Source of the DNA: Candidatus Moraniibacteriota bacterium
Lineage (GTDB): Bacteria > Patescibacteriota > Minisyncoccia > Moranbacterales > UBA9337
NCBI GenBank assembly: GCA_026985555.1
Contig: JALSQF010000010.1
Location: forward strand, 26,112-90,111
DNA length: 64,000 nucleotides
Direction: 5' to 3'
The position numbers and the translations under genes were made by a program. The notes beneath the pieces were generated by a model. It did no database searches. It saw nothing but the letters and a program-made list of their open reading frames with translations, and had not been told where the DNA came from. Below are positions 9,182 to 63,846 of the stretch, piece after piece; within the stretch, counting starts at the first letter, position 1, and each line of letters starts with the position of its first letter.

Positions 9182-10357
9182 ATGTTGAAAAAAATTTTAA
9201 AAAAATTATTTAATCTTTTTTTGATCATAGCTTTAATAATAGTAGTAAATATTATATTAGAAAATTATATATTGTCTAGGTTAGCACAAAATCATTATTG
9301 GTCTCAATTCAGTTTTGTTCAAAAAGTAAATAAACCAGTAAAGATTATCAATAAAATAGAAAAAGTAACTCTTCCTCAAGATAAATCCATTAAAGAAATT
9401 GTTTCTCAAACCAATACTGCTATGGTAAATATTCTTTCTTTAAAAACAACTACTAACAGTATTAAAACAAAAACAAAAGAAACAAAATTTAAATTATTGC
9501 AAAATGGAACTGGTGTTATATTAACTAGCGATGGATTAATAATAGCAAATAAAAATTCTTTAGTTTTGGGAGAAGATGTTAATTATAAGGTTTTAGTTTT
9601 CAATGGAAAAAGTTATACTGCTAAAATTACTTGGTTAGATAATTTTTCCAATTTAGTTTTTTTAAAACTTGATAATGTTAACAATTTACCTGTTATAGCT
9701 TTAGCCAATTCTGATGATTTTATGTCTGGTCAAAAAATAATTGCTATTAGCAACAAAGGAAAAGAATATAATAATTTTTTAGCGGAGGGAAATCTTGAAA
9801 CTAAAGATAGAACATTTAATTTATCTACAAGTGTTGTTAATTCATCAGAAAAATTAGAGGGTGTTTTTCGTTTAAATTTAGCTAATACTGATGATTTTGA
9901 TGGAGGAATAGTAACTAATTATAAAGGGGAAGTAGCGGGATTAATTAGCTCTCTTAAAAAAAATAATCAAACAGAGTATTTAGTTATACCAAGTAATAAA
10001 TTAAAAAATATATTTGAATTTTATCTTAATTATCAGGAAGACAAAAAGGAAAGAGCGCGTTTAGGTGTGTCTTATTTATCAATTAATCCTTCATTAGTAT
10101 TAAGCAAACAACTTCCTGTTAACGAAGGGGCTTTAATTTATTCTCCTTCAGGTAGACAAGGGCTGGCTATATTAAAAAGTTCTTCTGCGGATAAAGCAGG
10201 CATTGAAGTAGGGGATATAATTATATCTGTTGATAATCATTTAGTAAATCTAGATAATCCTCTTTCTAATATAATTGCTCAATATCATCAAGGAGAAAGA
10301 GCGAAAATAATTATTCTAAGAAAAAAAGAAAAAAAAGAACTGATAGTAAATTTTTAA
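9182..10357 (+). CDS. HtrA/DegP-like trypsin-fold protein with a C-terminal PDZ domain; catalytic motifs look degenerate
   Basis: N-terminal TM anchor, a trypsin-like core (GTGVILTSDGLIIAN...) and a C-terminal PDZ (GDIIISVDNHLV). The canonical TNNHV and GNSGGPL motifs are replaced (ANKNS and DDFDGG). Confidence 0.6.
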   Translation: MLKKILKKLFNLFLIIALIIVVNIILENYILSRLAQNHYWSQFSFVQKVNKPVKIINKIEKVTLPQDKSIKEIVSQTNTAMVNILSLKTTTNSIKTKTKETKFKLLQNGTGVILTSDGLIIANKNSLVLGEDVNYKVLVFNGKSYTAKITWLDNFSNLVFLKLDNVNNLPVIALANSDDFMSGQKIIAISNKGKEYNNFLAEGNLETKDRTFNLSTSVVNSSEKLEGVFRLNLANTDDFDGGIVTNYKGEVAGLISSLKKNNQTEYLVIPSNKLKNIFEFYLNYQEDKKERARLGVSYLSINPSLVLSKQLPVNEGALIYSPSGRQGLAILKSSSADKAGIEVGDIIISVDNHLVNLDNPLSNIIAQYHQGERAKIIILRKKEKKELIVNF

Positions 10358-10395: not shown

Positions 10396-10453
10396 TCCTT
10401 TCAATCAATAATAAAAAATCTTAATTGAATTAAGATTTTTTATTATTGAAAGG
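10396..10453. terminator. Near-perfect palindrome of about 56 bp between convergent genes (bidirectional terminator candidate)
   Basis: tcctttcaat...aaaaaatcttaattgaattaagatttttt...attgaaagga; the arms are reverse complements except for a 4-nt insertion. Confidence 0.6.
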
Positions 10454-10463
10454 ATATATTTTC

Positions 10464-10499
10464 GGGGTCATTAAAGGGGTCATTAAAGGGGTCATTAAA
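10464..10499 (+). repeat. Tandem 12-bp direct repeat GGGGTCATTAAA x3
   Basis: Three exact head-to-tail units abutting the stop codon of rpmE. The same unit recurs at 57571-57598. Confidence 0.9.
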
Positions 10500-10502
10500 T
10501 TT

Positions 10503-10811
10503 TTATTGTTTTTGTTTTTTCTTTTTTTTAGTTTGATTAGCTTTTTTTAAATTTTCTTTCTTTCTTTTTTGACGCGCTTGTTGAATTTTCTTTTTTTCAA
10601 TCTGTTTTTCTCTAGCTTTTTTAGCTATATGCTTAAAACGATCAACTCTTCCAGCTGTATCAACAACTTTCTTTTTTCCAGTATAAAAGGGATGACACTG
10701 GGAACAAATTTCTACTTCAATATTTTCTTGAGTAGAGCCCACTTCTAAAACAGCGCCACAAGCGCAAGTGATAGTAGTAGTTTTATATTGAGGATGTATC
10801 TCTTTTTTCAT
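10503..10811 (-). CDS. rpmE: 50S ribosomal protein L31 with a lysine-rich C-terminal extension
   Basis: [12 protein letters not shown]..., CxC...CxxC zinc ribbon, then a K-rich tail. Confidence 0.85.
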
Positions 10812-19845: not shown

Positions 19846-19883
19846 TTTCTGGCTATTTAAATATCCATTTAAATAGCCAGAAA
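19846..19883. repeat. Palindromic repeat element, copy 1 (TTTCTGGCTATTTAAAT-ATCCAT-TTAAATAGCCAGAAA)
   Basis: Perfect 14-nt arms, intergenic position, flanked by T- and A-runs. Confidence 0.9.
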
Positions 19884-32455: not shown

Positions 32456-32493
32456 TTTCTGGCTATTTAAATGGATATTTAAATAGCCAGAAA
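32456..32493. repeat. Palindromic repeat element, copy 2
   Basis: TTTCTGGCTATTTAAAT-GGATAT-TTAAATAGCCAGAAA; the centre is inverted relative to copy 1. Confidence 0.9.
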
Positions 32494-33367: not shown

Positions 33368-33405
33368 TTTCTGGCTATTTAAATGGATATTTAAATAGCC
33401 AGAAA
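33368..33405. repeat. Palindromic repeat element, copy 3
   Basis: Identical in sequence to copy 2. Confidence 0.9.
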
Positions 33406-37225: not shown

Positions 37226-37275
37226 TTTCTGGCTATTTAAATATCCATTTAAATGGATATTTAAATAGCCAGAAA
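37226..37275. repeat. Palindromic repeat element, copy 4 (longest form, perfect 44-nt palindrome core)
   Basis: ctggctatttaaatatccatttaaatggatatttaaatagccag. Copies 1-3 look like centre-deleted versions. Confidence 0.9.
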
Positions 37276-51765: not shown

Positions 51766-53835
51766 ATGCAATTAATAAAAAAACTTATAAAAACCAATGA
51801 CAAATATGATTTATCAGTTTTTAGTAAGGAAAGTGTAGATGAACTAGAAAAAAGAATTTATGAAAAAAATAATAAACTTTATTTTGATTGTTTAGTCAGA
51901 GAAAAATCAATCCAAGTAAAACCAGAAGAAATTGTAAGACAACTAATGATTGATAAACTTTTGAAAGAATATAATTATCCCAAAGAACTTTTACAAGTAG
52001 AGTATACAGTTACTTTTGGAAGAGAGAAAAAATCAGCTGATATTGTTATTTTGAATAAAAAAGATAAAACAAGTCCTTATATAATTGTTGAAGTTAAAAA
52101 AGCAAGTGCCAAAGATGGCAAAGAGCAATTAAAATCATATACAAATGCAACAGGCGCACCTCTTGCTGTATGGACTAATGGTCAAGAAATAAATATATAT
52201 GAAAGGCTTGACCCAAACTATTTTGAGCCACTTTCAGATTTACCAAAATATGAAGAAACTATTGAAGATGTAAAACAAGAAATTTTCACTTATCTTGATT
52301 TGATGGTGAAAGACAAGCTTGCAAATGAAAGAAAATCTTTAAAAGATTTGATTTTAGAGCTTGAAGATGAAGTTTTGGCAAATGCAGGTGTAGATATTTT
52401 TGAAGAAGTTTTTAAACTGATTTTCACAAAACTTTATGATGAAATGCAAAGTGCAGATGATAGAATTCAGATAGAAAGAGATTTTGTTAGACTAAAAAGA
52501 CAAAAGCCAGAGCTTACAGATAAAGAAATTTTGCAAGGATTATTAAAAGAAAACAAAAATAATGTAGAAGGATACAGAAAACTTGAATTTAGAAGTAGGG
52601 GAGATGCTCATCATACAAAAGAAGTGATAAATAAGCTTTTTGAAAAGGCAAAAAGAAAATGGCCGGGTATTTTTGATGATGGAGAACCTCTTAGAATTAC
52701 CGATGAAAATCACTTACAAATTTGTGTTGGTTATTTACAAAATGTAAAACTTTTTAACTCAAATTTGCAAGTAATTGATGAAGCATTTGAATATCTTGTA
52801 AATAAATCAGCAAAAGGTGATAAAGGTCAATATTTCACACCAAGAAATGTTATAGATATGGCTGTTTATATGATAAACCCGAAGCCAAATGAATATGTAA
52901 TAGATACAGCAGCCGGCAGTTGCGGTTTTACAGTGCATACACTATTTAATGTTTGGAATAAACTTAAAAATCAAGGAAAAGCAAATTTTCATAATTTTTC
53001 AAATCAGAGGTTAACTCCTGAACAAATAGAATATACAAGTAAAGTTTTTGGTATTGATTTTGATGAAAAAGCAGTAAGAGTAGCAAAAACTCTAAATATG
53101 ATTGCAGGAGACGGAAAAACAAATGTAATTCATCTAAACTCACTTGATTTCACAAGATGGAATGAAAAGATAAAAGATAGAGAGTGGATGAGAAAATATG
53201 GCGAGGGGTATTATAGGCTGCTTGATTTAGCAGTAAATAGAGATGAACCAAAAGAATTCAATTTTGATATAGTTTTGACTAATCCTCCTTTTGCGGGAGA
53301 TATAAAAGATAATAGACTTTTAGCTCAATATGAAATAGCATATAAAGAAAATGGAAAAAGAGTATCAAAACTTAGTAGAGATATTTTATTTATAGAAAGA
53401 AATCTAAATATGCTAAAACCTGGTGGTAGAATGGCAATAATTTTACCACAAGGTAGATTTAACAATACTTCAGATGAAAGAGTCAGAGAATATATAATGA
53501 GTAAAGCAAGACTTATTGCTGTAATAGGACTTCATGTTAATACTTTCAAACCACATACAGGAACAAAAACTTCTGTTTTGTTTGTGCAAAAATGGAATGA
53601 TGACCCAAACAAAGGTCCATTAAATCCTTATAAAGAAGATTATGAAGTTTTTATGGCAGTAAGCGAAAAACCAGGAAAAGATAATTCAGGGCAAGAAGTT
53701 TACAAAACAGATCCTGAAACGGGAGAAAGGTTGCTTGACGAGCATGGGCATTTAATACAAGATCATGATTTGGAAGAAATAGCAAAAGAGTTTGAGAAGT
53801 GGGCTAAGAAGGAAGGGTTGAGTTTTTGGAAATAA
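51766..53835 (+). CDS. Restriction-modification subunit: N-terminal PD-(D/E)xK nuclease-like domain fused to a gamma-class N6-adenine DNA methyltransferase (HsdM-like; Type IIB/BcgI-A-like architecture)
   Basis: N-terminal D92...E109-V-K111 (SADIVILNKKDKTSPYIIVEVKK), resembling the HsdR_N endonuclease fold. MTase motif I VIDTAAGSCGF and motif IV TNPPFAG. No hsdR in the window. Confidence 0.7.
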   Translation: MQLIKKLIKTNDKYDLSVFSKESVDELEKRIYEKNNKLYFDCLVREKSIQVKPEEIVRQLMIDKLLKEYNYPKELLQVEYTVTFGREKKSADIVILNKKDKTSPYIIVEVKKASAKDGKEQLKSYTNATGAPLAVWTNGQEINIYERLDPNYFEPLSDLPKYEETIEDVKQEIFTYLDLMVKDKLANERKSLKDLILELEDEVLANAGVDIFEEVFKLIFTKLYDEMQSADDRIQIERDFVRLKRQKPELTDKEILQGLLKENKNNVEGYRKLEFRSRGDAHHTKEVINKLFEKAKRKWPGIFDDGEPLRITDENHLQICVGYLQNVKLFNSNLQVIDEAFEYLVNKSAKGDKGQYFTPRNVIDMAVYMINPKPNEYVIDTAAGSCGFTVHTLFNVWNKLKNQGKANFHNFSNQRLTPEQIEYTSKVFGIDFDEKAVRVAKTLNMIAGDGKTNVIHLNSLDFTRWNEKIKDREWMRKYGEGYYRLLDLAVNRDEPKEFNFDIVLTNPPFAGDIKDNRLLAQYEIAYKENGKRVSKLSRDILFIERNLNMLKPGGRMAIILPQGRFNNTSDERVREYIMSKARLIAVIGLHVNTFKPHTGTKTSVLFVQKWNDDPNKGPLNPYKEDYEVFMAVSEKPGKDNSGQEVYKTDPETGERLLDEHGHLIQDHDLEEIAKEFEKWAKKEGLSFWK

Positions 53836-53856
53836 TTTATTTTTAATGGAGGAGAT

Positions 53857-56115
53857 ATGATTAAAAAAATTAAAAAAATAAAAAACCTTGGAATATTTAA
53901 TGAATTTAGATGGAATTCATCTATTTTAGAATTTAAAAGATATAATTTATTTTATGGATGGAATGCATCAGGAAAAACTACTTTGACTACTATTTTTGAG
54001 TCATTGAATTTAAATATTACGAAATATTTTAAAGATGCGGGATATGAGATAGAAACTAATAATGGTGATATTTATAAACAAAATGATATTTTTCCAACAA
54101 AAGTTAGAGTTTTTAATCAGCATTACATAGATGAAAATATACATATTTCTAATGGAAAAACAAAACCTATTTTTTTATTGGGTGAAGAAAGTAAAGAATT
54201 AAAAGAAAAAATAGATAATTGGGAAGATGAAAAAATCAAATTAAAAAATATAAAAATAGAATTAGAAAGAGTGAAAGAGCAAAAGGAAAAAGATATTAAT
54301 AATATTTTTACAAATACTGCTAGAATTATAGGTGAAAATTTATCTGGTTCATCAGTCAGAAATTATAGAAGAAATGATGCAAAAGATGATTTTGAAAAAT
54401 TAGCTCAGAAAGAACTATTGTCACAAGAAGATTTAGAAAAATATAAAAAGATAAAAGAACAAAAGAAAAAAGAAAAGATTGATGAAATAGTATTTACTTT
54501 AAGGCAAGACAAAATTTTAGAAGAAATAAAAAACATTTTAAAAAAATCTGTTAATTCTATTATAATAGCAAGACTAAAAAATAATCCAGATATTTCTGCT
54601 TGGGTTGAGAAAGGTATTGAAATTCATAAAAAACACAATTCTAAAACTTGTGAATTTTGTGGTCAAAGTTTACCAAATGGTTTAATAGAAAAACTTTTGC
54701 TTTATTTTAATGAAGAAGATAAAAAATTAAAGCAAATTATTGATGAAAAAATAAATTTTTTAAATAATAAATTTAATGAATTAAATAATTTAAACATACC
54801 TAAGAAAGTTGAATTATATGATGACTTGTATAATGATTTTGAAAGCAGATTAAGTTCCTTTAATAAAGAAAGGATAAATTTATCAAATGAGATTTCAGAA
54901 TTAATCAAACATTTACAAAACAAAAAATTTAAGACTAGTGAACCTATGAAAATTACATTTTATTTTAACAATTCATTTGAAGAAGCATTAAAAAATTTAA
55001 ATGAAATAATAAAAAAGCATAATAATAAAACAGAAAATTTACAAGAGCAAAAAGATGAGGCATTTAAAAAAATAAAAAACCATTATCTAAGTGAGATATG
55101 GGATAAGGTGAAAGAAAATGAAAGTAAAATTAGTGAAATAAACAATAATATAACTATCATTAATAATGGTGGTAGTTTTACTTATAAAGGTAAAAACATT
55201 GAAACAATTGAAACAATAGGGCTTTCAAAATTAAATAATGAAATTTTAGAGGCAAAGGCTAAAATATCTGATTTACATAAATCAGTTGATAAATTGAATA
55301 AGTATTTAGAAACATTTTTAGGTAGAAATGAAATAAAATTTAAGGTATCTGATGAGCAAGATGGATTTATAATATTAAGAAATAATGAGATTGTAAGCAA
55401 TTTGAGTGAAGGTGAAAAAACAGCAATTGCTTTTGTTTATTTTATAATTCATTTGCAAGATAAAGATTTTAATATAAACAATGGAATTGTAGTTGTAGAT
55501 GATCCTGTATCTAGTTTTGATTCAAGTTCTGTTTTTCAAGCCTTTGCATTTATGAGAGAAGCTGTTAAAGATGCAAAGCAAATCTTTATTTTTACTCATA
55601 ATTTTGATTTTTTTAAATTAACTTTAAATTGGTTTAAGAATTCAAGAAGAAATTGGAGTTGTTATCAAATTAAAAATAAAATGATTAAAGAAAAAGAGAA
55701 TACAAAAAGAATAGCTTATATAGATAAAATCGATCATTTTATTGAAAAATATACTACAGAATATGAATATTTGTTTAAGGTATTGTATGAATTTAATAAT
55801 TCAGACCCAAGTAATATAGAAGATGTTTATAATATACCAAACATTGGTAGAAAAGTTTTGGAAACATTTTTAACATTTAGAATTCCTACTTCAGAAAGTT
55901 TGTATCAAAAATTACAGAAAATAAATTTTGATGAAAATAAAAAGACCTCAATATACAAGTTTTTTAATGATTTATCACATTTGACAGGTAGTGGTTTTCA
56001 CCCATCATTGATACAAGAATCTAAGAAAAATGTAAAATATTTGTTAGAAATGATAAAAAGTTCTTTTAAGGAACATTATGATATTTTAGAAAATACTTTA
56101 TCTAACCAAAACTAA
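53857..56115 (+). CDS. RloC/PrrC-like ABC-type ATPase with a coiled-coil CxxC zinc-hook insert and a C-terminal R-x3-E...H module (putative anticodon nuclease)
   Basis: Walker A GWNASGKTT (residues 34-42), a long coiled-coil insert containing CEFC (residues 265-268), Walker B IVVVDDPVSSFD, and a C-terminal GRKVLETF...LSH. It sits between the MTase and S genes, and its stop is 2 nt before the hsdS start. Confidence 0.55.
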   Translation: MIKKIKKIKNLGIFNEFRWNSSILEFKRYNLFYGWNASGKTTLTTIFESLNLNITKYFKDAGYEIETNNGDIYKQNDIFPTKVRVFNQHYIDENIHISNGKTKPIFLLGEESKELKEKIDNWEDEKIKLKNIKIELERVKEQKEKDINNIFTNTARIIGENLSGSSVRNYRRNDAKDDFEKLAQKELLSQEDLEKYKKIKEQKKKEKIDEIVFTLRQDKILEEIKNILKKSVNSIIIARLKNNPDISAWVEKGIEIHKKHNSKTCEFCGQSLPNGLIEKLLLYFNEEDKKLKQIIDEKINFLNNKFNELNNLNIPKKVELYDDLYNDFESRLSSFNKERINLSNEISELIKHLQNKKFKTSEPMKITFYFNNSFEEALKNLNEIIKKHNNKTENLQEQKDEAFKKIKNHYLSEIWDKVKENESKISEINNNITIINNGGSFTYKGKNIETIETIGLSKLNNEILEAKAKISDLHKSVDKLNKYLETFLGRNEIKFKVSDEQDGFIILRNNEIVSNLSEGEKTAIAFVYFIIHLQDKDFNINNGIVVVDDPVSSFDSSSVFQAFAFMREAVKDAKQIFIFTHNFDFFKLTLNWFKNSRRNWSCYQIKNKMIKEKENTKRIAYIDKIDHFIEKYTTEYEYLFKVLYEFNNSDPSNIEDVYNIPNIGRKVLETFLTFRIPTSESLYQKLQKINFDENKKTSIYKFFNDLSHLTGSGFHPSLIQESKKNVKYLLEMIKSSFKEHYDILENTLSNQN

Positions 56116-56117
56116 CT

Positions 56118-57467
56118 ATGGCACAAATAAGCATAATAAACATAAAAAATATAATCCAAGCAAAAAGGTTTGATGCTGAGTATTTTAAACCGGAGTATTT
56201 GAAGGATGATTTTTATTTAGAAAATAAAGGCTTTTTCTTATTGTATGAAATTTCAAATGTTAAAGGGGGGAAAAGATTACCATTAGGAGAAAAGTTTTCA
56301 GAAAAAGGAGTTCCTTATATTAGGGCAGAAGATATAAAAAATGATTTTGTTGAATATGAAAATGTACCAAGAATTTCTTTACAATTACATGAAAAATTAA
56401 AAAAATATCAAACTAAAAAAGATGATATATTGTTAACTATTGTAGGTTCTGTTGGAGCTATTGGTATTGTAAATTTTAATTTAGAAAGATGCAATTTAAC
56501 AGAAAATGCAGCTAAAATAACTAATTTAGATTTTAATAAATATAAATCAGAAGTGATATTTTCTTTTTTGTTATCTAAATATGGTCAAAATCAAATAAAA
56601 AGAGAAAAAGTAGGAACAGTTCAAGAAAAATTATCATTAGATAGACTAAGAAAATTTAAAATTCCTCTTCTCCCTCAATCCTTCCAACTCCAAATAGAAA
56701 AAATAGTAAAAGAAGCTTATGAAAAACAATCTCTTTCAAAAGAACTTTACAAAGAGGCAGAACAGATTTTGCTTAAAGAATTGGATTTGAAAGATTTCAA
56801 ACCAAAACATAAATTGACTTTCACCACAACAAAAAAAGAAATAGAACAGGATAAAAGATTTGATGCAGAATATTTTCAGCCAAAATATGAAGAAATTATT
56901 GAGAAAATAAAAAGTTATAAGGGGGGATTTGATAAAGTTGGGGAAGTAGTAAATATAAAAGATAAAAATTTTACATCAAAAGATTATGTAAAATATAAAT
57001 ATGTTGCATTAGCTGATATTTCAAATGATGGATATATTCAAAGTTTTGAAGAAGATTTCGGTAAAAATTTACCTACAAGAGCAAGAAGACTTATAAATAA
57101 AGGAGATGTAATTATTTCTTCTATTGAAGGTTCTTTAAATTCTTGTGCTTTAATTGAAGAAGAATTTGATAATTCAATTTGTTCTACAGGTTTTTATGTT
57201 GTAAATTCTGAAAGAATAAATCCTGAGACATTATTAGTTTTAATGAAATTATATCCAATACAAAAACTGTTGAAAAAAGGGTGTAAAGGAACAATACTTA
57301 CTGCAATACCAAAAGATGAATTAGAAAAAATTGTTTTACCAATTATTGACAATCAAACCCAACAAAAAATTTCTCAAAAAATACAAGAGAGCTTTAAACT
57401 TAAAAAAGAGTTAAAAGAGCTTTTGGAAAAAGCCAAAAAAATGGTAGAAGAGGAAATAGAAAAATGA
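56118..57467 (+). CDS. hsdS: Restriction-modification specificity subunit (HsdS-like, two target-recognition domains)
   Basis: Duplicated conserved segments RFDAEYFKPEYL and RFDAEYFQPKYEEI separating two variable TRDs. Central and C-terminal conserved helices (LQIEKIVKEAYEKQ, ELKELLEKAKK). Confidence 0.8.
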   Translation: MAQISIINIKNIIQAKRFDAEYFKPEYLKDDFYLENKGFFLLYEISNVKGGKRLPLGEKFSEKGVPYIRAEDIKNDFVEYENVPRISLQLHEKLKKYQTKKDDILLTIVGSVGAIGIVNFNLERCNLTENAAKITNLDFNKYKSEVIFSFLLSKYGQNQIKREKVGTVQEKLSLDRLRKFKIPLLPQSFQLQIEKIVKEAYEKQSLSKELYKEAEQILLKELDLKDFKPKHKLTFTTTKKEIEQDKRFDAEYFQPKYEEIIEKIKSYKGGFDKVGEVVNIKDKNFTSKDYVKYKYVALADISNDGYIQSFEEDFGKNLPTRARRLINKGDVIISSIEGSLNSCALIEEEFDNSICSTGFYVVNSERINPETLLVLMKLYPIQKLLKKGCKGTILTAIPKDELEKIVLPIIDNQTQQKISQKIQESFKLKKELKELLEKAKKMVEEEIEK

Positions 57468-57570
57468 TTTCTTTTTTATATTAAAATTTCCAAACATTTT
57501 GTAAAAATCTTAAATTATGTTAGAGTTAATTAAAGTTAACGCAATTGAAAGATAAATTTAAAAACGACCA

Positions 57571-57598
57571 CATTAAAGGGGTCATTAAAGGGGTCATT
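57571..57598 (+). repeat. Tandem 12-bp repeat GGGGTCATTAAA (about 2.7 units), second locus
   Basis: ccacattaaaggggtcattaaaggggtcatt. Same unit and orientation as 10464-10499; 34 bp upstream of the AbrB-like ORF. Confidence 0.9.
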
Positions 57599-57631
57599 TT
57601 TTAATTTTAAATAATAAGCAATAATAAAACT

Positions 57632-57808
57632 ATGTCTAGAAGAAAATTAAAGGATAGAAATATCCGTGAACTATCTAAACGAAGCAATGGAACTTATGCT
57701 CTTACTTTACCCATTGAATTAATACGTGAATTAAAATGGAGAGATAAACAAAAATTAGTGGTGGAAAAAGCAGATAAAAAAATAATTATTAAAGATTGGA
57801 AAAAATAA
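57632..57808 (+). CDS. Small AbrB/MazE/SpoVT-type DNA-binding protein (58 aa; absent from the ORF track, probably below its length cutoff)
   Basis: MSRRKLKDRNIRELSKRSNGTYALTLPIELIRELKWRDKQKLVVEKADKKIIIKDWKK; this is a swapped-hairpin-like segment (TYALTLPIELIRELKW...KLVV). Confidence 0.5.
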   Translation: MSRRKLKDRNIRELSKRSNGTYALTLPIELIRELKWRDKQKLVVEKADKKIIIKDWKK

Positions 57809-58760: not shown

Positions 58761-58830
58761 CCAATTATCTCTAAAAATCAGTATTTAGTATTTAAAAGTT
58801 AAAAAATAATTTTTACAAAAATTTTATTCT
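58761..58830. repeat. Left arm of an imperfect inverted-repeat pair of about 75 bp (partner at 63769-63846)
   Basis: ccaattatctctaaaaatcagtatttagtatttaaaagttaaaaaataatttttacaaaaattttattct; by eye about 85% reverse-complement identity to the partner, including an exact 21-mer. Confidence 0.8.
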
Positions 58831-59750
58831 TGTTTCTCTTGTTTTTTGTTTTTTTTGTTATGAAACTTTTGATGAATTTTTTTTAATTGCTGATTGGTAA
58901 TGTGAGTGTAAATTTGAGTAGTGGTAATAGAAGAATGGCCTAACATACTTTGCACGCTTCTGATATCAGCACCATTAGATAAAAGATCAGTGGCAAAGCT
59001 ATGTCTTAAAGTATGAGGATGAACATCTTTAGTGATACCAGCTTTAGTAGCGTAATATTTAACAATTCTTTGTATACTTCTAGATGTTAAACGTAAATTA
59101 TCTTCCTTTTTATTTTTAGTTAGACGAATAAAAAGAGCTTCATCTATATCAGTCCGCTGTTGCAAATATTTTAAAAGCGCTTGACGGGCAGTTTCCGAAA
59201 GGAAAACTAGTCTTATTTTCCCGCCTTTTCCTTTAACACTAAACTCTTGTTTATCTAAATTAATTTGATCGCGATTTAAATTAACTAGTTCGGAAACACG
59301 CAAACCAGTGGAGAAGAGTAATTCTAAAATTGCTCTATCACGTAAACCTTTAAAGCCGTTTTCATCGGGAGATTGAAGTAATTTTTCTAATTCATCTTTG
59401 GTTAGAAATTCAATTTCTTTTTGTGGATTTTTACCTACTTCTATTTTTTCTGCTGGTAAAGTTTTTATATCACGAACGGCCAGATATTTTAAAAAATTGC
59501 GTAAAGCAATAATGTGATAATTTTGAGTAGATTTTTCTAGTTTTTTTCCTTTTTCATCTTCAAAACGATTTAAATACAAACGATATTGTCTTACTTTTTC
59601 TAGGGTGATATCTTCTGGTTGGCTAATTTGAGTAAAATCTAAAAAACGTTTTAAATAATGATGATAATTTTCTATGGTTTTAAGGGAACGGTTTACTTCT
59701 ATTTCTAAATGCTCTAAAAATTGATTAACTAATTTTTCTAAAGTAGTCAT
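58824..59750 (-). CDS. xerC: Tyrosine site-specific recombinase (XerC/XerD family)
   Basis: N-terminal core-binding domain; catalytic R...HxxR...Y region (HTLRHSFAT, GHSSITTTQIYTH). The stop codon lies inside the left inverted-repeat arm. Confidence 0.8.
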   Translation of the reverse strand: MTTLEKLVNQFLEHLEIEVNRSLKTIENYHHYLKRFLDFTQISQPEDITLEKVRQYRLYLNRFEDEKGKKLEKSTQNYHIIALRNFLKYLAVRDIKTLPAEKIEVGKNPQKEIEFLTKDELEKLLQSPDENGFKGLRDRAILELLFSTGLRVSELVNLNRDQINLDKQEFSVKGKGGKIRLVFLSETARQALLKYLQQRTDIDEALFIRLTKNKKEDNLRLTSRSIQRIVKYYATKAGITKDVHPHTLRHSFATDLLSNGADIRSVQSMLGHSSITTTQIYTHITNQQLKKIHQKFHNKKNKKQEKQE

Positions 59751-61475: not shown

Positions 61476-62810
61476 ATGTTAAAATTATTAAAATTTGTTT
61501 CTGTTAGTATAATTTTATTCTTTTTTCTTTTTTCTCCTTATTATATTTTTGCTGAAGATACTACCAATTATACAGATAATACAAATGGATTGAGTAAGCA
61601 AAAACAAAAAGAATATGAAAGTAAAACAAAAAAAATTGAAAAGCTTAATGAAAAAGCTAGAATTTATCAAAAAATTTTAGATATTAAACGCAATCAAAAA
61701 ACAACACTTTATCAACAATTACAAAATATAAATAATGAAATAAAATCATTACAAGAAGAAATAACCACTCAAAAAGAAAAAATAATCACACTCAATGATA
61801 AGATTGCTGTTTTAGAAAAAAGAATTACAGAAAATCAAAAAAAAATTAAAGAACAAAAAAAGCTTTTATCTTATATGGTGCGTTCTTATTATGAATACGC
61901 TCAACATGATTGGTATCCTGCCATTTTAAGTAATGAAGGTGTAGCTGGTTTTCTAACTAATAAAGATAGATTAACACAATCAGGAGATAAGATTAAAAAA
62001 TTATTGGGAGCATTGAAGTCTCTTAAAAATAATTTAGAAAACAAAAAAAGATCTTTAACTAACAAAAAGAAAGAAGTTATAGAGATGCAAAGGAAATTAG
62101 AAGAAAAAAATCTTTATTTGATAAGCAATAAACAACGGAAAAACAATTTATTAATTCAAACCAAAGGAGAAGAAGCTAGATATCAAAAAAAACTAGAGAG
62201 AATAAAGGCAGAAAAAATGCAATTGTTAGGTGATATTGATGAGTTATTTAATGCTAATAGTGCTAATATTAATGTATGGAAAGCTAATCTTCCGCAACCA
62301 AAAAGTGGTTTAGCTTCTTTACGTTGGTATTATTCACAAAAAGACTCTCGTTGGGGAAATAAAACTATAGGTAACTCTAACAGTTTGATGAAAAATTATG
62401 GATGTGCTATTACATCTATTTCCATGGTCTTTACTTATCATGGTAATCGTATTTCTCCAGGATTAATGTGTAAACAATCCATTTTTGATTGGGATTTAAT
62501 TAAATGGCCTAATACTTGGGGCGGATTGTCTTTGGATAAGGGTGTAGGACATTTTCATGGAAACATAAACTGGAAAACTATAGATAAAAACTTAAAAAAG
62601 AAAAATCCAGTGGTAGTTTATATTAGAGCAGGGCGCAAAGGGGGTCATTATGTCGTAATTCATCATAAGGATAAAAAAGGAAGATATATAGTTCACGATC
62701 CTTATTTTGGACCGAACATTTTTTTAAGCTCTACAATGTCGTTGCTTTCTAAATTATATAAAGTTCCTATTTCAAAAAGATCAATAGATCAAATGATTTT
62801 ATATAAATAA
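61476..62810 (+). CDS. Secreted coiled-coil protein with a C-terminal papain-like (C39-like) cysteine-peptidase domain (PcsB-like architecture; putative cell-wall hydrolase)
   Basis: A signal peptide, roughly 230 aa of coiled coil, and a C-terminal domain with NYGCAITSISMVFTYHG (Cys), GGHYVVIHH (His) and HDP. Confidence 0.55.
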   Translation: MLKLLKFVSVSIILFFFLFSPYYIFAEDTTNYTDNTNGLSKQKQKEYESKTKKIEKLNEKARIYQKILDIKRNQKTTLYQQLQNINNEIKSLQEEITTQKEKIITLNDKIAVLEKRITENQKKIKEQKKLLSYMVRSYYEYAQHDWYPAILSNEGVAGFLTNKDRLTQSGDKIKKLLGALKSLKNNLENKKRSLTNKKKEVIEMQRKLEEKNLYLISNKQRKNNLLIQTKGEEARYQKKLERIKAEKMQLLGDIDELFNANSANINVWKANLPQPKSGLASLRWYYSQKDSRWGNKTIGNSNSLMKNYGCAITSISMVFTYHGNRISPGLMCKQSIFDWDLIKWPNTWGGLSLDKGVGHFHGNINWKTIDKNLKKKNPVVVYIRAGRKGGHYVVIHHKDKKGRYIVHDPYFGPNIFLSSTMSLLSKLYKVPISKRSIDQMILYK

Positions 62811-62875: not shown

Positions 62876-62937
62876 TATTTTTTGATATATATTTGCTAAA
62901 AAATATTTTTTTAGTGATTGATAAGAATTTTTTGATG

Positions 62938-63011
62938 TGGGCGTATTCCGACTTGAACGGAAGACCTCTTGCGTGTCGAGCAAGCGCTCTAACCAGCTGA
63001 GCTATACGCCC
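62938..63011 (-). tRNA. tRNA-Val (anticodon GAC), CCA not encoded; unusual C at position 33
   Basis: Reverse complement folds as acceptor GGGCGTA/TACGCCC, D-stem GCTC/GAGC, anticodon stem CTTGC/GCAAG, loop TCGACAC and T-loop TTCAAGT. Confidence 0.7.
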
Positions 63012-63768
63012 AAATTTAAATTTTAAATAAATATATTTTTTGTAATTTTAATTAATTTATTTATTTAGTTAAAACTAAATATTATATTATATCATAATAT
63101 GTAATATGTATAGTATTATAAATTTTTTTATATATATTTATATATGAAATTACATAAACCATATACATACTTGTATAAATCATATACATATATGTATATG
63201 ATTATATAACAAATAGTATGTTGTAATGAAATAATAAAAAGAAAAAACAAAAAAGGAAATAAATTAAATATAGAAACATAAATATATAATATAAATATTT
63301 AATATATATCAAAATGATAACTAAATTTAATTTTATATATTTTTTATAATATAAAAAATATATAAAATTAAAAAACAAAACTTAATCTAATAAAAAACAA
63401 GTAAACAAAAAATTTTTATATACGTTACATGTATAATCACAATAAAGATATTTAAAACAAATAAAAGATAAAAAATAAAAGTAATTTTATTTGTGTAAAT
63501 GTCGTCCAATCTACATTGTGCGACACATATAATATAAGTATCTATGTATGTATATATAAATATATACGAAAGCAATAAGTAAAAATATAAACAAGCCATT
63601 TATATATTTATTTGTATATATATAAATATTACCCTATTCCCTTTTTTAAAACTCTTAAAATTAAAAAAAATTTAAAAGATTAAAAGTGAAGTTTTATTTT
63701 TAATTAAAATTAATTAGAATAAAAAAAATTATTATTATATAGAAAATAGAAAATAAAAAAACAAAAAT
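63012..63768. repeat. Extremely AT-rich low-complexity tract with short TA/CATA-type micro-repeats
   Basis: Runs of atatacata and tatgtatatg and poly-A/T; only a dubious 70-aa antisense ORF. Confidence 0.6.
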
Positions 63769-63846
63769 AAAAATAAAATATTTTTTGCAAAAAATATTTT
63801 TTAAATTTTAAATACTAAATACTGATTTATTTTTAGAGATAATTTA
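63769..63846. repeat. Right arm of the inverted-repeat pair (partner of 58761-58830)
   Basis: aaaataaaatattttttgcaaaaaatattttttaaattttaaatactaaatactgatttatttttagagataatt. Confidence 0.8.

Follow-up and report, generated by a model that had tools for sequence, protein, structure and literature searches.

The question raised by this locus is why the same 12-bp sequence is repeated in tandem at two distant intergenic sites in the window, i.e., the whole 64,000-nucleotide stretch of DNA analysed here, and whether these repeats are sites for a protein. A sequence-only reading had reported repeat arrays at both sites, and both are real. Array 1 (10464-10499) consists of three exact head-to-tail units of GGGGTCATTAAA, which Tandem Repeats Finder describes as period 12, 3.0 copies and 100% match with a score of 72. 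Array 2 (57571-57598) reads ACATTAAA + GGGGTCATTAAA + GGGGTCATT and is placed between hsdS (56118-57467) and a 58-aa ORF (57632-57808). The exact sequence GGGGTCATT is present in six copies in the 64-kb window, where 0.19 would be expected, and no shuffle out of 100 had as many, in agreement with the earlier judgement that such repeats are very unlikely to arise by chance. Five of the six copies make up the two arrays, and the sixth lies within an ORF at 62641.

The register in which the units are read matters for their interpretation. The earlier description of array 2 as about 2.7 units in the same orientation holds for the sequence but not for the third tile: in the register AAAGGGGTCATT, the apparent 0.7 unit appears better taken as a degenerate inverted tile, AACGACCACATT. 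The tiles seem to be pseudo-palindromic 12-mers that can face either way rather than pure direct repeats. In this register the window tile is AAAGGG.GTCATT, a half-degenerate form of the palindrome AATGAC.GTCATT, whose perfect form is found in the orphan array of locus L105. The features of the window are as follows.

10400-10455, no strand assigned: 56-bp palindrome with a strong fold on both strands (-26.5 and -24.7 kcal/mol; z -3.1 and -5.4).
10461-10499, plus strand: array 1, direct tiles TTCGGGGTCATT / AAAGGGGTCATT / AAAGGGGTCATT, then AAA; an orphan array between convergent genes.
57563-57598, plus strand: array 2, tiles AACGACCACATT / AAAGGGGTCATT / AAAGGGGTCATT in inverted-direct-direct order; proposed autoregulatory operator of the AbrB-like gene.
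57620-57625, plus strand: putative -10 hexamer AATAAT as read from the sequence, 6 nt before the ATG.
57632-57808, plus strand: 58-aa stand-alone AbrB/MazE-domain protein with a PF04014 match; proposed tile binder.

Array 2 had been placed 34 bp before the ATG of the 58-aa ORF; its upstream position stands, but the distance to the ATG (57632) is 33 nt. Both arrays are found in close relatives, and array 2 is identical in three of them (L005, L020 and L021). Beyond these relatives the exact core is rare, because an exact scan with the 21-mer GGGGTCATTAAAGGGGTCATT matched only four metagenome loci, with no match in species-representative genomes and none in viral contigs.

The 58-aa protein matches the Pfam family PF04014 (MazE_antitoxin/SpoVT-AbrB) just above threshold (E=1.1e-5; 25.7 bits against a cutoff of 24.7), and most of its database homologues have a precomputed PF04014 match. 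It has no NCBIfam match, and its PHROGs matches are weak and unannotated. A shallow AlphaFold2 monomer model is weak (pLDDT 64) and predicts a strand-strand-helix-strand-strand order, which is compatible with the AbrB-type swapped-hairpin fold. The top Foldseek matches of this model in the PDB are AbrB, MazE and SpoVT, at E values of about 0.7-1.4 that are not significant. The protein belongs to a family of compact, stand-alone proteins of 55-80 aa, with 324 loci in GTDB species-representative genomes by a pattern scan and 498 clusters at 50% identity by a profile search. Its hosts are mostly Patescibacteria (Moranbacteria, Saccharibacteria, Paceibacterota and others) and Bacteroidota, with some loci in Bdellovibrionales and Gammaproteobacteria, and no relatives in viral contigs. 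A literature search on AbrB with Patescibacteria/CPR or with 12-bp repeats returned no description of this family.

Nearly all family genes that were compared have a short array of 12-bp period in front of them. A few close homologues were compared first, then 80 loci from representative genomes, and 87 loci entered the tile count, in which an array was defined as at least three contiguous 12-mers of at least 9/12 mutual identity, direct or inverted, no more than 80 nt before the ATG. Such arrays were present in 52 of the 87 loci. In contrast, periods of 10, 11, 13 and 14 gave 0-2 loci, shuffled sequences gave 0.7, and random 80-nt genomic windows from the same loci contained tiled arrays in only 4 of 1525 cases. 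The repeats thus lie just upstream of their own gene, as expected for an autoregulatory operator, and the position is kept in homologues specifically for period 12, with the array ending 0-33 nt before the ATG. Family tiles usually take the form AA-core-TT with TTAA junctions between units (37/51 units versus 15.8 in shuffles). Perfect 12-bp palindromes are common among them, for example AATTAC.GTAATT, AACTCT.AGAGTT and AAATAC.GTATTT. The core varies widely from lineage to lineage. The orientation of the tiles relative to the gene also varies, being inverted throughout in L103 and inverted-direct-direct in the window, and this variability is consistent with a symmetric dimer that recognises double-stranded DNA. 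Short-read (Logan) contigs L006, L022 and L108-L110 end inside or at the edge of arrays, probably because tandem 12-mers break k-mer assembly, which calls for caution with unit counts.

The tile core follows the protein. Protein identity and tile similarity are correlated across the family (Mantel r=0.36, a value reached in 0 of 2000 permutations), and the mean identity of the tiles, 0.61 for proteins 40-50% identical, reaches 0.76 for those 70-80% identical. The correlation falls to r=0.19 for protein pairs below 70% identity, and shared ancestry can be the source of part of the signal. Per-column protein-DNA association placed the top residuals at residues 3-4, 17-20 and 39 with small effects, and the association of tiles with the recognition loop was weak at this level. 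Loop classes, together with the Mantel test, bear out the co-variation of site and regulator. The window protein has the loop motif xNG[ST]Y (SK-x-x-NG-[ST]-Y), and all six independent homologues with this loop have GGTCATT/AATGACC tiles. L003, from another organism and 60% identical to the window protein, has tiles identical to those of the window, AAAGGGGTCATT, and L023 (74% identity) has AATGACCGTATT, AATGTGGTCATT and AATGACATCATT. Proteins P0040, P0020 and P0025 were then picked by the xNG[ST]Y loop alone and their contigs fetched afterwards; the predicted core lay upstream of the gene in all three newly fetched loci, with the following tiles.

L103: AATGACCCATTT, AATGACCTATTT, AATGACATCATT, AATGACGTCGTT.
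L104: AATGATCACATT, AATGTGGTCATT, AAAGGGGTCATT.
L105: AATGACCACATT, AATGTGGTCATT, AAATGGGTCATT.

The L104 contig also carries a second paralogue with another loop, and its tiles are of the AATTACGTAATT type.

The arrays are most likely DNA-binding sites of the AbrB-type protein encoded beside array 2, because hundreds of its relatives in other bacteria have similar 12-bp arrays ahead of their own gene. We consider it probable (roughly 70%) that both arrays are contiguous 12-bp binding tiles of the 58-aa AbrB/MazE-fold protein and that array 2 is its operator for self-repression. The sequence-only reading had already suggested that array 2 may be the operator of the AbrB/MazE-type ORF, and the family arrays, the co-variation of core and protein, and the three loop-based predictions all argue for it. 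Comparison establishes the architecture, its conservation in the family and the core-protein co-variation; binding, stoichiometry and repression are what we infer from there. By analogy with MraZ and MazE, one swapped-hairpin dimer would occupy each 12-bp tile, and neighbouring dimers would bind cooperatively over two to four tiles. The bound stretch at array 2 would end 33 nt before the ATG and would cover or abut the -35 and the upstream part of the gene's own promoter, so that the 58-aa protein would repress its own gene. A consensus scan of the plus strand detected no sigma-70-type promoter between array 2 and the ATG, and promoter scanning of the relevant strand gave nothing of use at array 1 either. 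TGnTATAAT is found between array and ATG in homologues L013, L014, L030 and L048, and a search for this motif at a fixed position across the family gave no positional peak. With no promoter detected between array 2 and the ATG and no fixed position of the -10 element, we therefore only infer repression by occlusion.

The neighbouring genes do not offer another partner for the array. Downstream of the family genes, 66 loci hit 81 Pfam families, and upstream, 67 loci hit 89; on neither side does any Pfam family occur in more than three loci. Since no neighbour is conserved on either side, the array goes with the AbrB-like gene itself. In the window, the gene downstream of the 58-aa ORF encodes a 302-aa membrane protein without a Pfam match. 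A type II toxin-antitoxin module was considered and rejected, as there is no adjacent cognate toxin, the family neighbours are heterogeneous, and PADLOC returned no match. The units are head-to-tail without spacers, so the arrays are not CRISPR arrays, as the earlier reading had also concluded, and the Cas12a repeat of relative L005 is unrelated to them.

Array 1 lies in a different setting, and no gene begins beside it that it could regulate. It is flanked by convergent genes, a gene for an HtrA-like protease with Trypsin_2 and PDZ domains (9182-10357, plus strand) and rpmE (10503-10811, minus strand), whose product is L31. As noted from the sequence earlier, it adjoins the rpmE stop codon, with a gap of 3 nt, and the 56-bp palindrome, which ends 8 nt before the array. 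The palindrome is probably a bidirectional terminator for the htrA-like gene and rpmE, with array 1 as its neighbour and not a part of it, and array 1 itself is unpaired in the centroid fold. The earlier suggestion to compare unit number among related strains could be followed in the two strains available, and both have three units. In GCA_054024795.1 (L107 1816-1851, corresponding to window 10464-10499), a single T-to-C change, GGGGTCACTAAA, is shared by two of the three units; it hits the otherwise invariant GTCATT half-site and leaves unit number unchanged. Such a concerted change is typical of tandem-repeat turnover. Array 2, unlike array 1, is identical in both strains, and the change in the array 1 half-site thus suggests that array 1 is under weaker constraint. 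The adjacent palindrome differs by small indels in L107.

As an orphan of the same tiles 47 kb from array 2, array 1 would probably be bound by the same protein. It may act as a terminator-side roadblock or insulator, serve as a titration site, or be a functionless copied operator. Orphan arrays with the window's core are also found in other organisms (L001, L002, L004, L105:6781 and L023:7334). A search for orphan arrays within 5 kb on either side of family members at stringent settings scored only L023 and the window. Three of the orphans in other organisms are placed as follows.

L001: between convergent parB and relA/spoT-like genes, with about 42 nt identical to the L003 operator.
L002: upstream of rpsP, a strong hairpin followed by a T-run (-21.4 kcal/mol, z -4.1).
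L004: downstream of nusB in another organism, two units with the same flanks as window array 1.

These orphans bear on the strongest of the alternatives, in which the arrays are a dispersed intergenic repeat, either REP- or MITE-like or a terminator-associated hairpin, that has spread by copying and whose placement is unrelated to protein binding. We regard this as unlikely, while some of the orphans do resemble such elements. The flanks shared between L001 and L003 (about 42 nt) and between array 1 and L004 (TTTC...TTTTTATTGTTTTTGTT) suggest copying as small blocks, and near-identical orphans with common flanks look copied rather than independently selected. L002 and L023:7334 form a strong hairpin followed by a T-run, and the window holds four near-identical intergenic copies of the CTGGCTATTT family, described below, with no cognate gene. 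However, the hairpin and T-run are confined to these few orphans elsewhere: a scan of both window arrays gave no terminator-like site, so an intrinsic terminator was rejected here, and the region of array 2 folds weakly (-9.1 kcal/mol, z -1.6). Neither a transposase nor a RAYT gene was seen nearby. Dispersal by copying leaves unexplained the 12-bp arrays found at one and the same position before the ATG in hundreds of diverged homologues, and the cores that track protein class. Judged by these comparisons, a dispersed repeat or terminator could account for some orphans, whereas it fails for the arrays that lie close to the gene across the family and match its protein. Under the preferred reading as protein-binding tiles, the orphans could be second targets, terminator-side roadblocks, titration sites or copied operators.

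Read on the opposite strand, the T-rich flank of array 1, TTTTTATTGTTTTTGTT (10500-10516), supplies the final codons of rpmE and its stop. The same sequence follows the orphan array of an unrelated organism (L004 259-280), where it is non-coding, and a copied element may be the origin of the last part of the Lys-rich tail of L31.

The window contains a second 12-bp tile family at four intergenic sites (19846-19883, 32456-32493, 33368-33405 and 37226-37275). These near-identical CTGGCTATTT arrays take the form TTTCTGGCTATTT / AAAT(GGATAT or ATATCC)ATTT / AAATAGCCAGAAA; three sites have three tiles and the fourth has four, forming a perfect 48-bp palindrome. The exact sequence CTGGCTATTTAAAT occurs in eight copies in the window against 0.09 expected. 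Two of the sites come straight after a terminator-like hairpin, and the distance from each of the four to a downstream promoter of a plus-strand gene, tuf being one such gene, is about 70-160 bp. The inner core of this family, ATGGATAT, is the operator core of homologue L026. An AbrB-like paralogue for the CTGGCTATTT/ATGGATAT arrays was found neither in the window nor in the fetched contigs of relatives. The binding model predicts such a paralogue, its ATG preceded by an array of the CTGGCTAT/ATGGATAT type, and few GGGGTCATT arrays in the genome.

The arrays might instead act in RNA, as 5'-UTR or 3'-UTR elements such as hairpins controlling translation or termination. In many family loci the array reaches to within 0-10 nt of the ATG and could be transcribed, and arrays with inverted tiles can fold. 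Yet no fold is seen in direct-only arrays (window array 1, L060 and L083), the orientation of the tiles relative to the gene is not fixed, as the comparison of L103 with the window shows, and there is no Rfam match. We consider a function in RNA very unlikely.

Recombination sites had also been put forward from the sequence, and in this form the arrays would be att- or dif-like sites of the tyrosine recombinase at 58824-59750, marking one border of an exchangeable defence island. Strains do differ upstream of array 2, with a type I restriction-modification system here versus a Cas12a CRISPR-Cas system in L005, and the Xer-like recombinase lies 1.2 kb downstream of array 2. However, the breakpoint relative to the L005 strain lies inside hsdS, about 370 bp upstream, and not at the array, and array 1 stands beside no variable segment. 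The recombinase neighbours the arrays in close relatives only and is not a conserved neighbour of the family arrays. Sites of the dif type have an 11-6-11 layout, and the tiles lack it. A Xer/dif or integrase att site was accordingly rejected, and the recombination reading is highly improbable.

The island upstream of the AbrB-like gene (51766-57467) encodes hsdM, an AAA_13/PDC-S06 ATPase and hsdS. The 752-aa AAA_13 ATPase between hsdM and hsdS (53857-56115) matches PADLOC PDC-S06, a candidate defence family, at E=4.5e-231 and has weak similarity to LmuB. In GCA_054024795.1 (L005 1-9190), the same island holds the Cas12a-type CRISPR-Cas system (Cas4, Cas1, Cas2 and 25 repeats ending AATTTCTACTTTTGTAGAT) with a GIY-YIG gene, and about 300 bp of the hsdS 3' end persist as a remnant. 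Small GIY-YIG genes (about 70-85 aa) occur near AbrB-like genes at L005 8542-8796, L104 11775-12020 and L013 6133-6339, and the one in L104 is directly upstream of the AbrB-like gene with an 8-nt gap. The apparent link of the family to defence genes (restriction-modification, TIR, NERD and DpnI in some loci) is anecdotal. Farther along the window, the stretch at 63100-63800, after tRNA-Val (62937-63011), is very AT-rich and of low complexity, with many short TA-rich inverted repeats, no credible ORFs and a weak resemblance (about 75%) to two stretches of L004.

Replication slippage noise or replication-origin iterons, the latter proposed earlier from the sequence, are barely credible and already largely refuted: the units are perfect tandem repeats, two L107 array 1 units share one change and dnaG lies 1.2 kb from array 1, but the same 21-mer recurs in three or more other organisms at sites that are not orthologous, and iterons are unlikely because GC skew is positive throughout the window, its cumulative curve rising monotonically without a switch at the arrays, and no rep, dnaA or other replication gene lies beside either array.

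The repeats are thus very probably regulatory protein-binding sites rather than noise, a CRISPR array or a replication origin, as far as comparative sequence evidence reaches. To our knowledge, only a handful of transcription factors can be recognised in Patescibacteria (CPR), and their gene regulation is almost unstudied. Here, a tiny, widespread AbrB-type protein is linked to a sharply defined DNA site, with dozens of natural protein-site pairs that form a data set on how the swapped-hairpin fold reads sequence. The operator predictions are testable with the 58-aa protein and a 36-bp DNA. Orphan arrays hint at possible further targets or an architectural role. A wider proposal, which we offer tentatively and regard as possible rather than probable, is an undescribed, widespread family of 55-80-aa stand-alone AbrB-fold regulators, with most members in Patescibacteria and Bacteroidota, each reading its own 12-bp AA-core-TT tile through a short variable loop, with orphan arrays as protein-dependent insulators or roadblocks. 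If true, nature would here have a protein-DNA recognition code that is easily re-targeted, and the orphan arrays by terminators and promoters (array 1 and the four CTGGCTATTT arrays) would organise transcription in very small genomes.

Repeated-site operators of AbrB-superfamily proteins are already known. We did not find in the searchable literature a description of this stand-alone family, of contiguous 12-bp tiles that occur in both orientations and differ in core by lineage, or of the orphan arrays. The Omega repressor of inc18 plasmids, a ribbon-helix-helix protein, binds contiguous direct and inverted heptads at promoters with one dimer each; the likeness is one of working principle only, as Omega has an unrelated fold, 7-bp units and a plasmid context. 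AbrB, Abh and SpoVT of Bacillus would have their N-terminal swapped-hairpin domain in common with the window protein and give its closest, though weak, structural matches. AbrB carries a further multimerisation domain at its C terminus, and no clear consensus unites the many promoters that it binds, whereas the family described here shows sharply defined 12-bp tiles.

The MazE/VapB antitoxins belong to the Pfam family of the window protein and are small AbrB-fold dimers that repress their own promoter, as we propose for the window protein. The window protein differs in having no toxin gene and no disordered toxin-binding C-terminal tail, because its whole 58 aa make up the DNA-binding domain. 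The E. coli mazEF operator comprises three consecutive MazE dimer sites in 47 bp with one palindromic core (PMC4333400). MraZ of the dcw operon, another member of the AbrB superfamily, has three to four evenly spaced GTG[G/T] boxes with 6-nt spacers just upstream of its own gene and promoter, and binds them cooperatively with one subunit or domain pair per box (PMC12957436); a comparable mode is proposed for the window protein. In contrast, MraZ has two domains and about 150 aa and assembles into octameric or larger rings, and its boxes are direct only, have a 10-bp period and are conserved across phyla. The family here would achieve a comparable operator with a single domain, 58 aa long in the window, on tiles of 12 bp that occur in either orientation and carry a hypervariable core.
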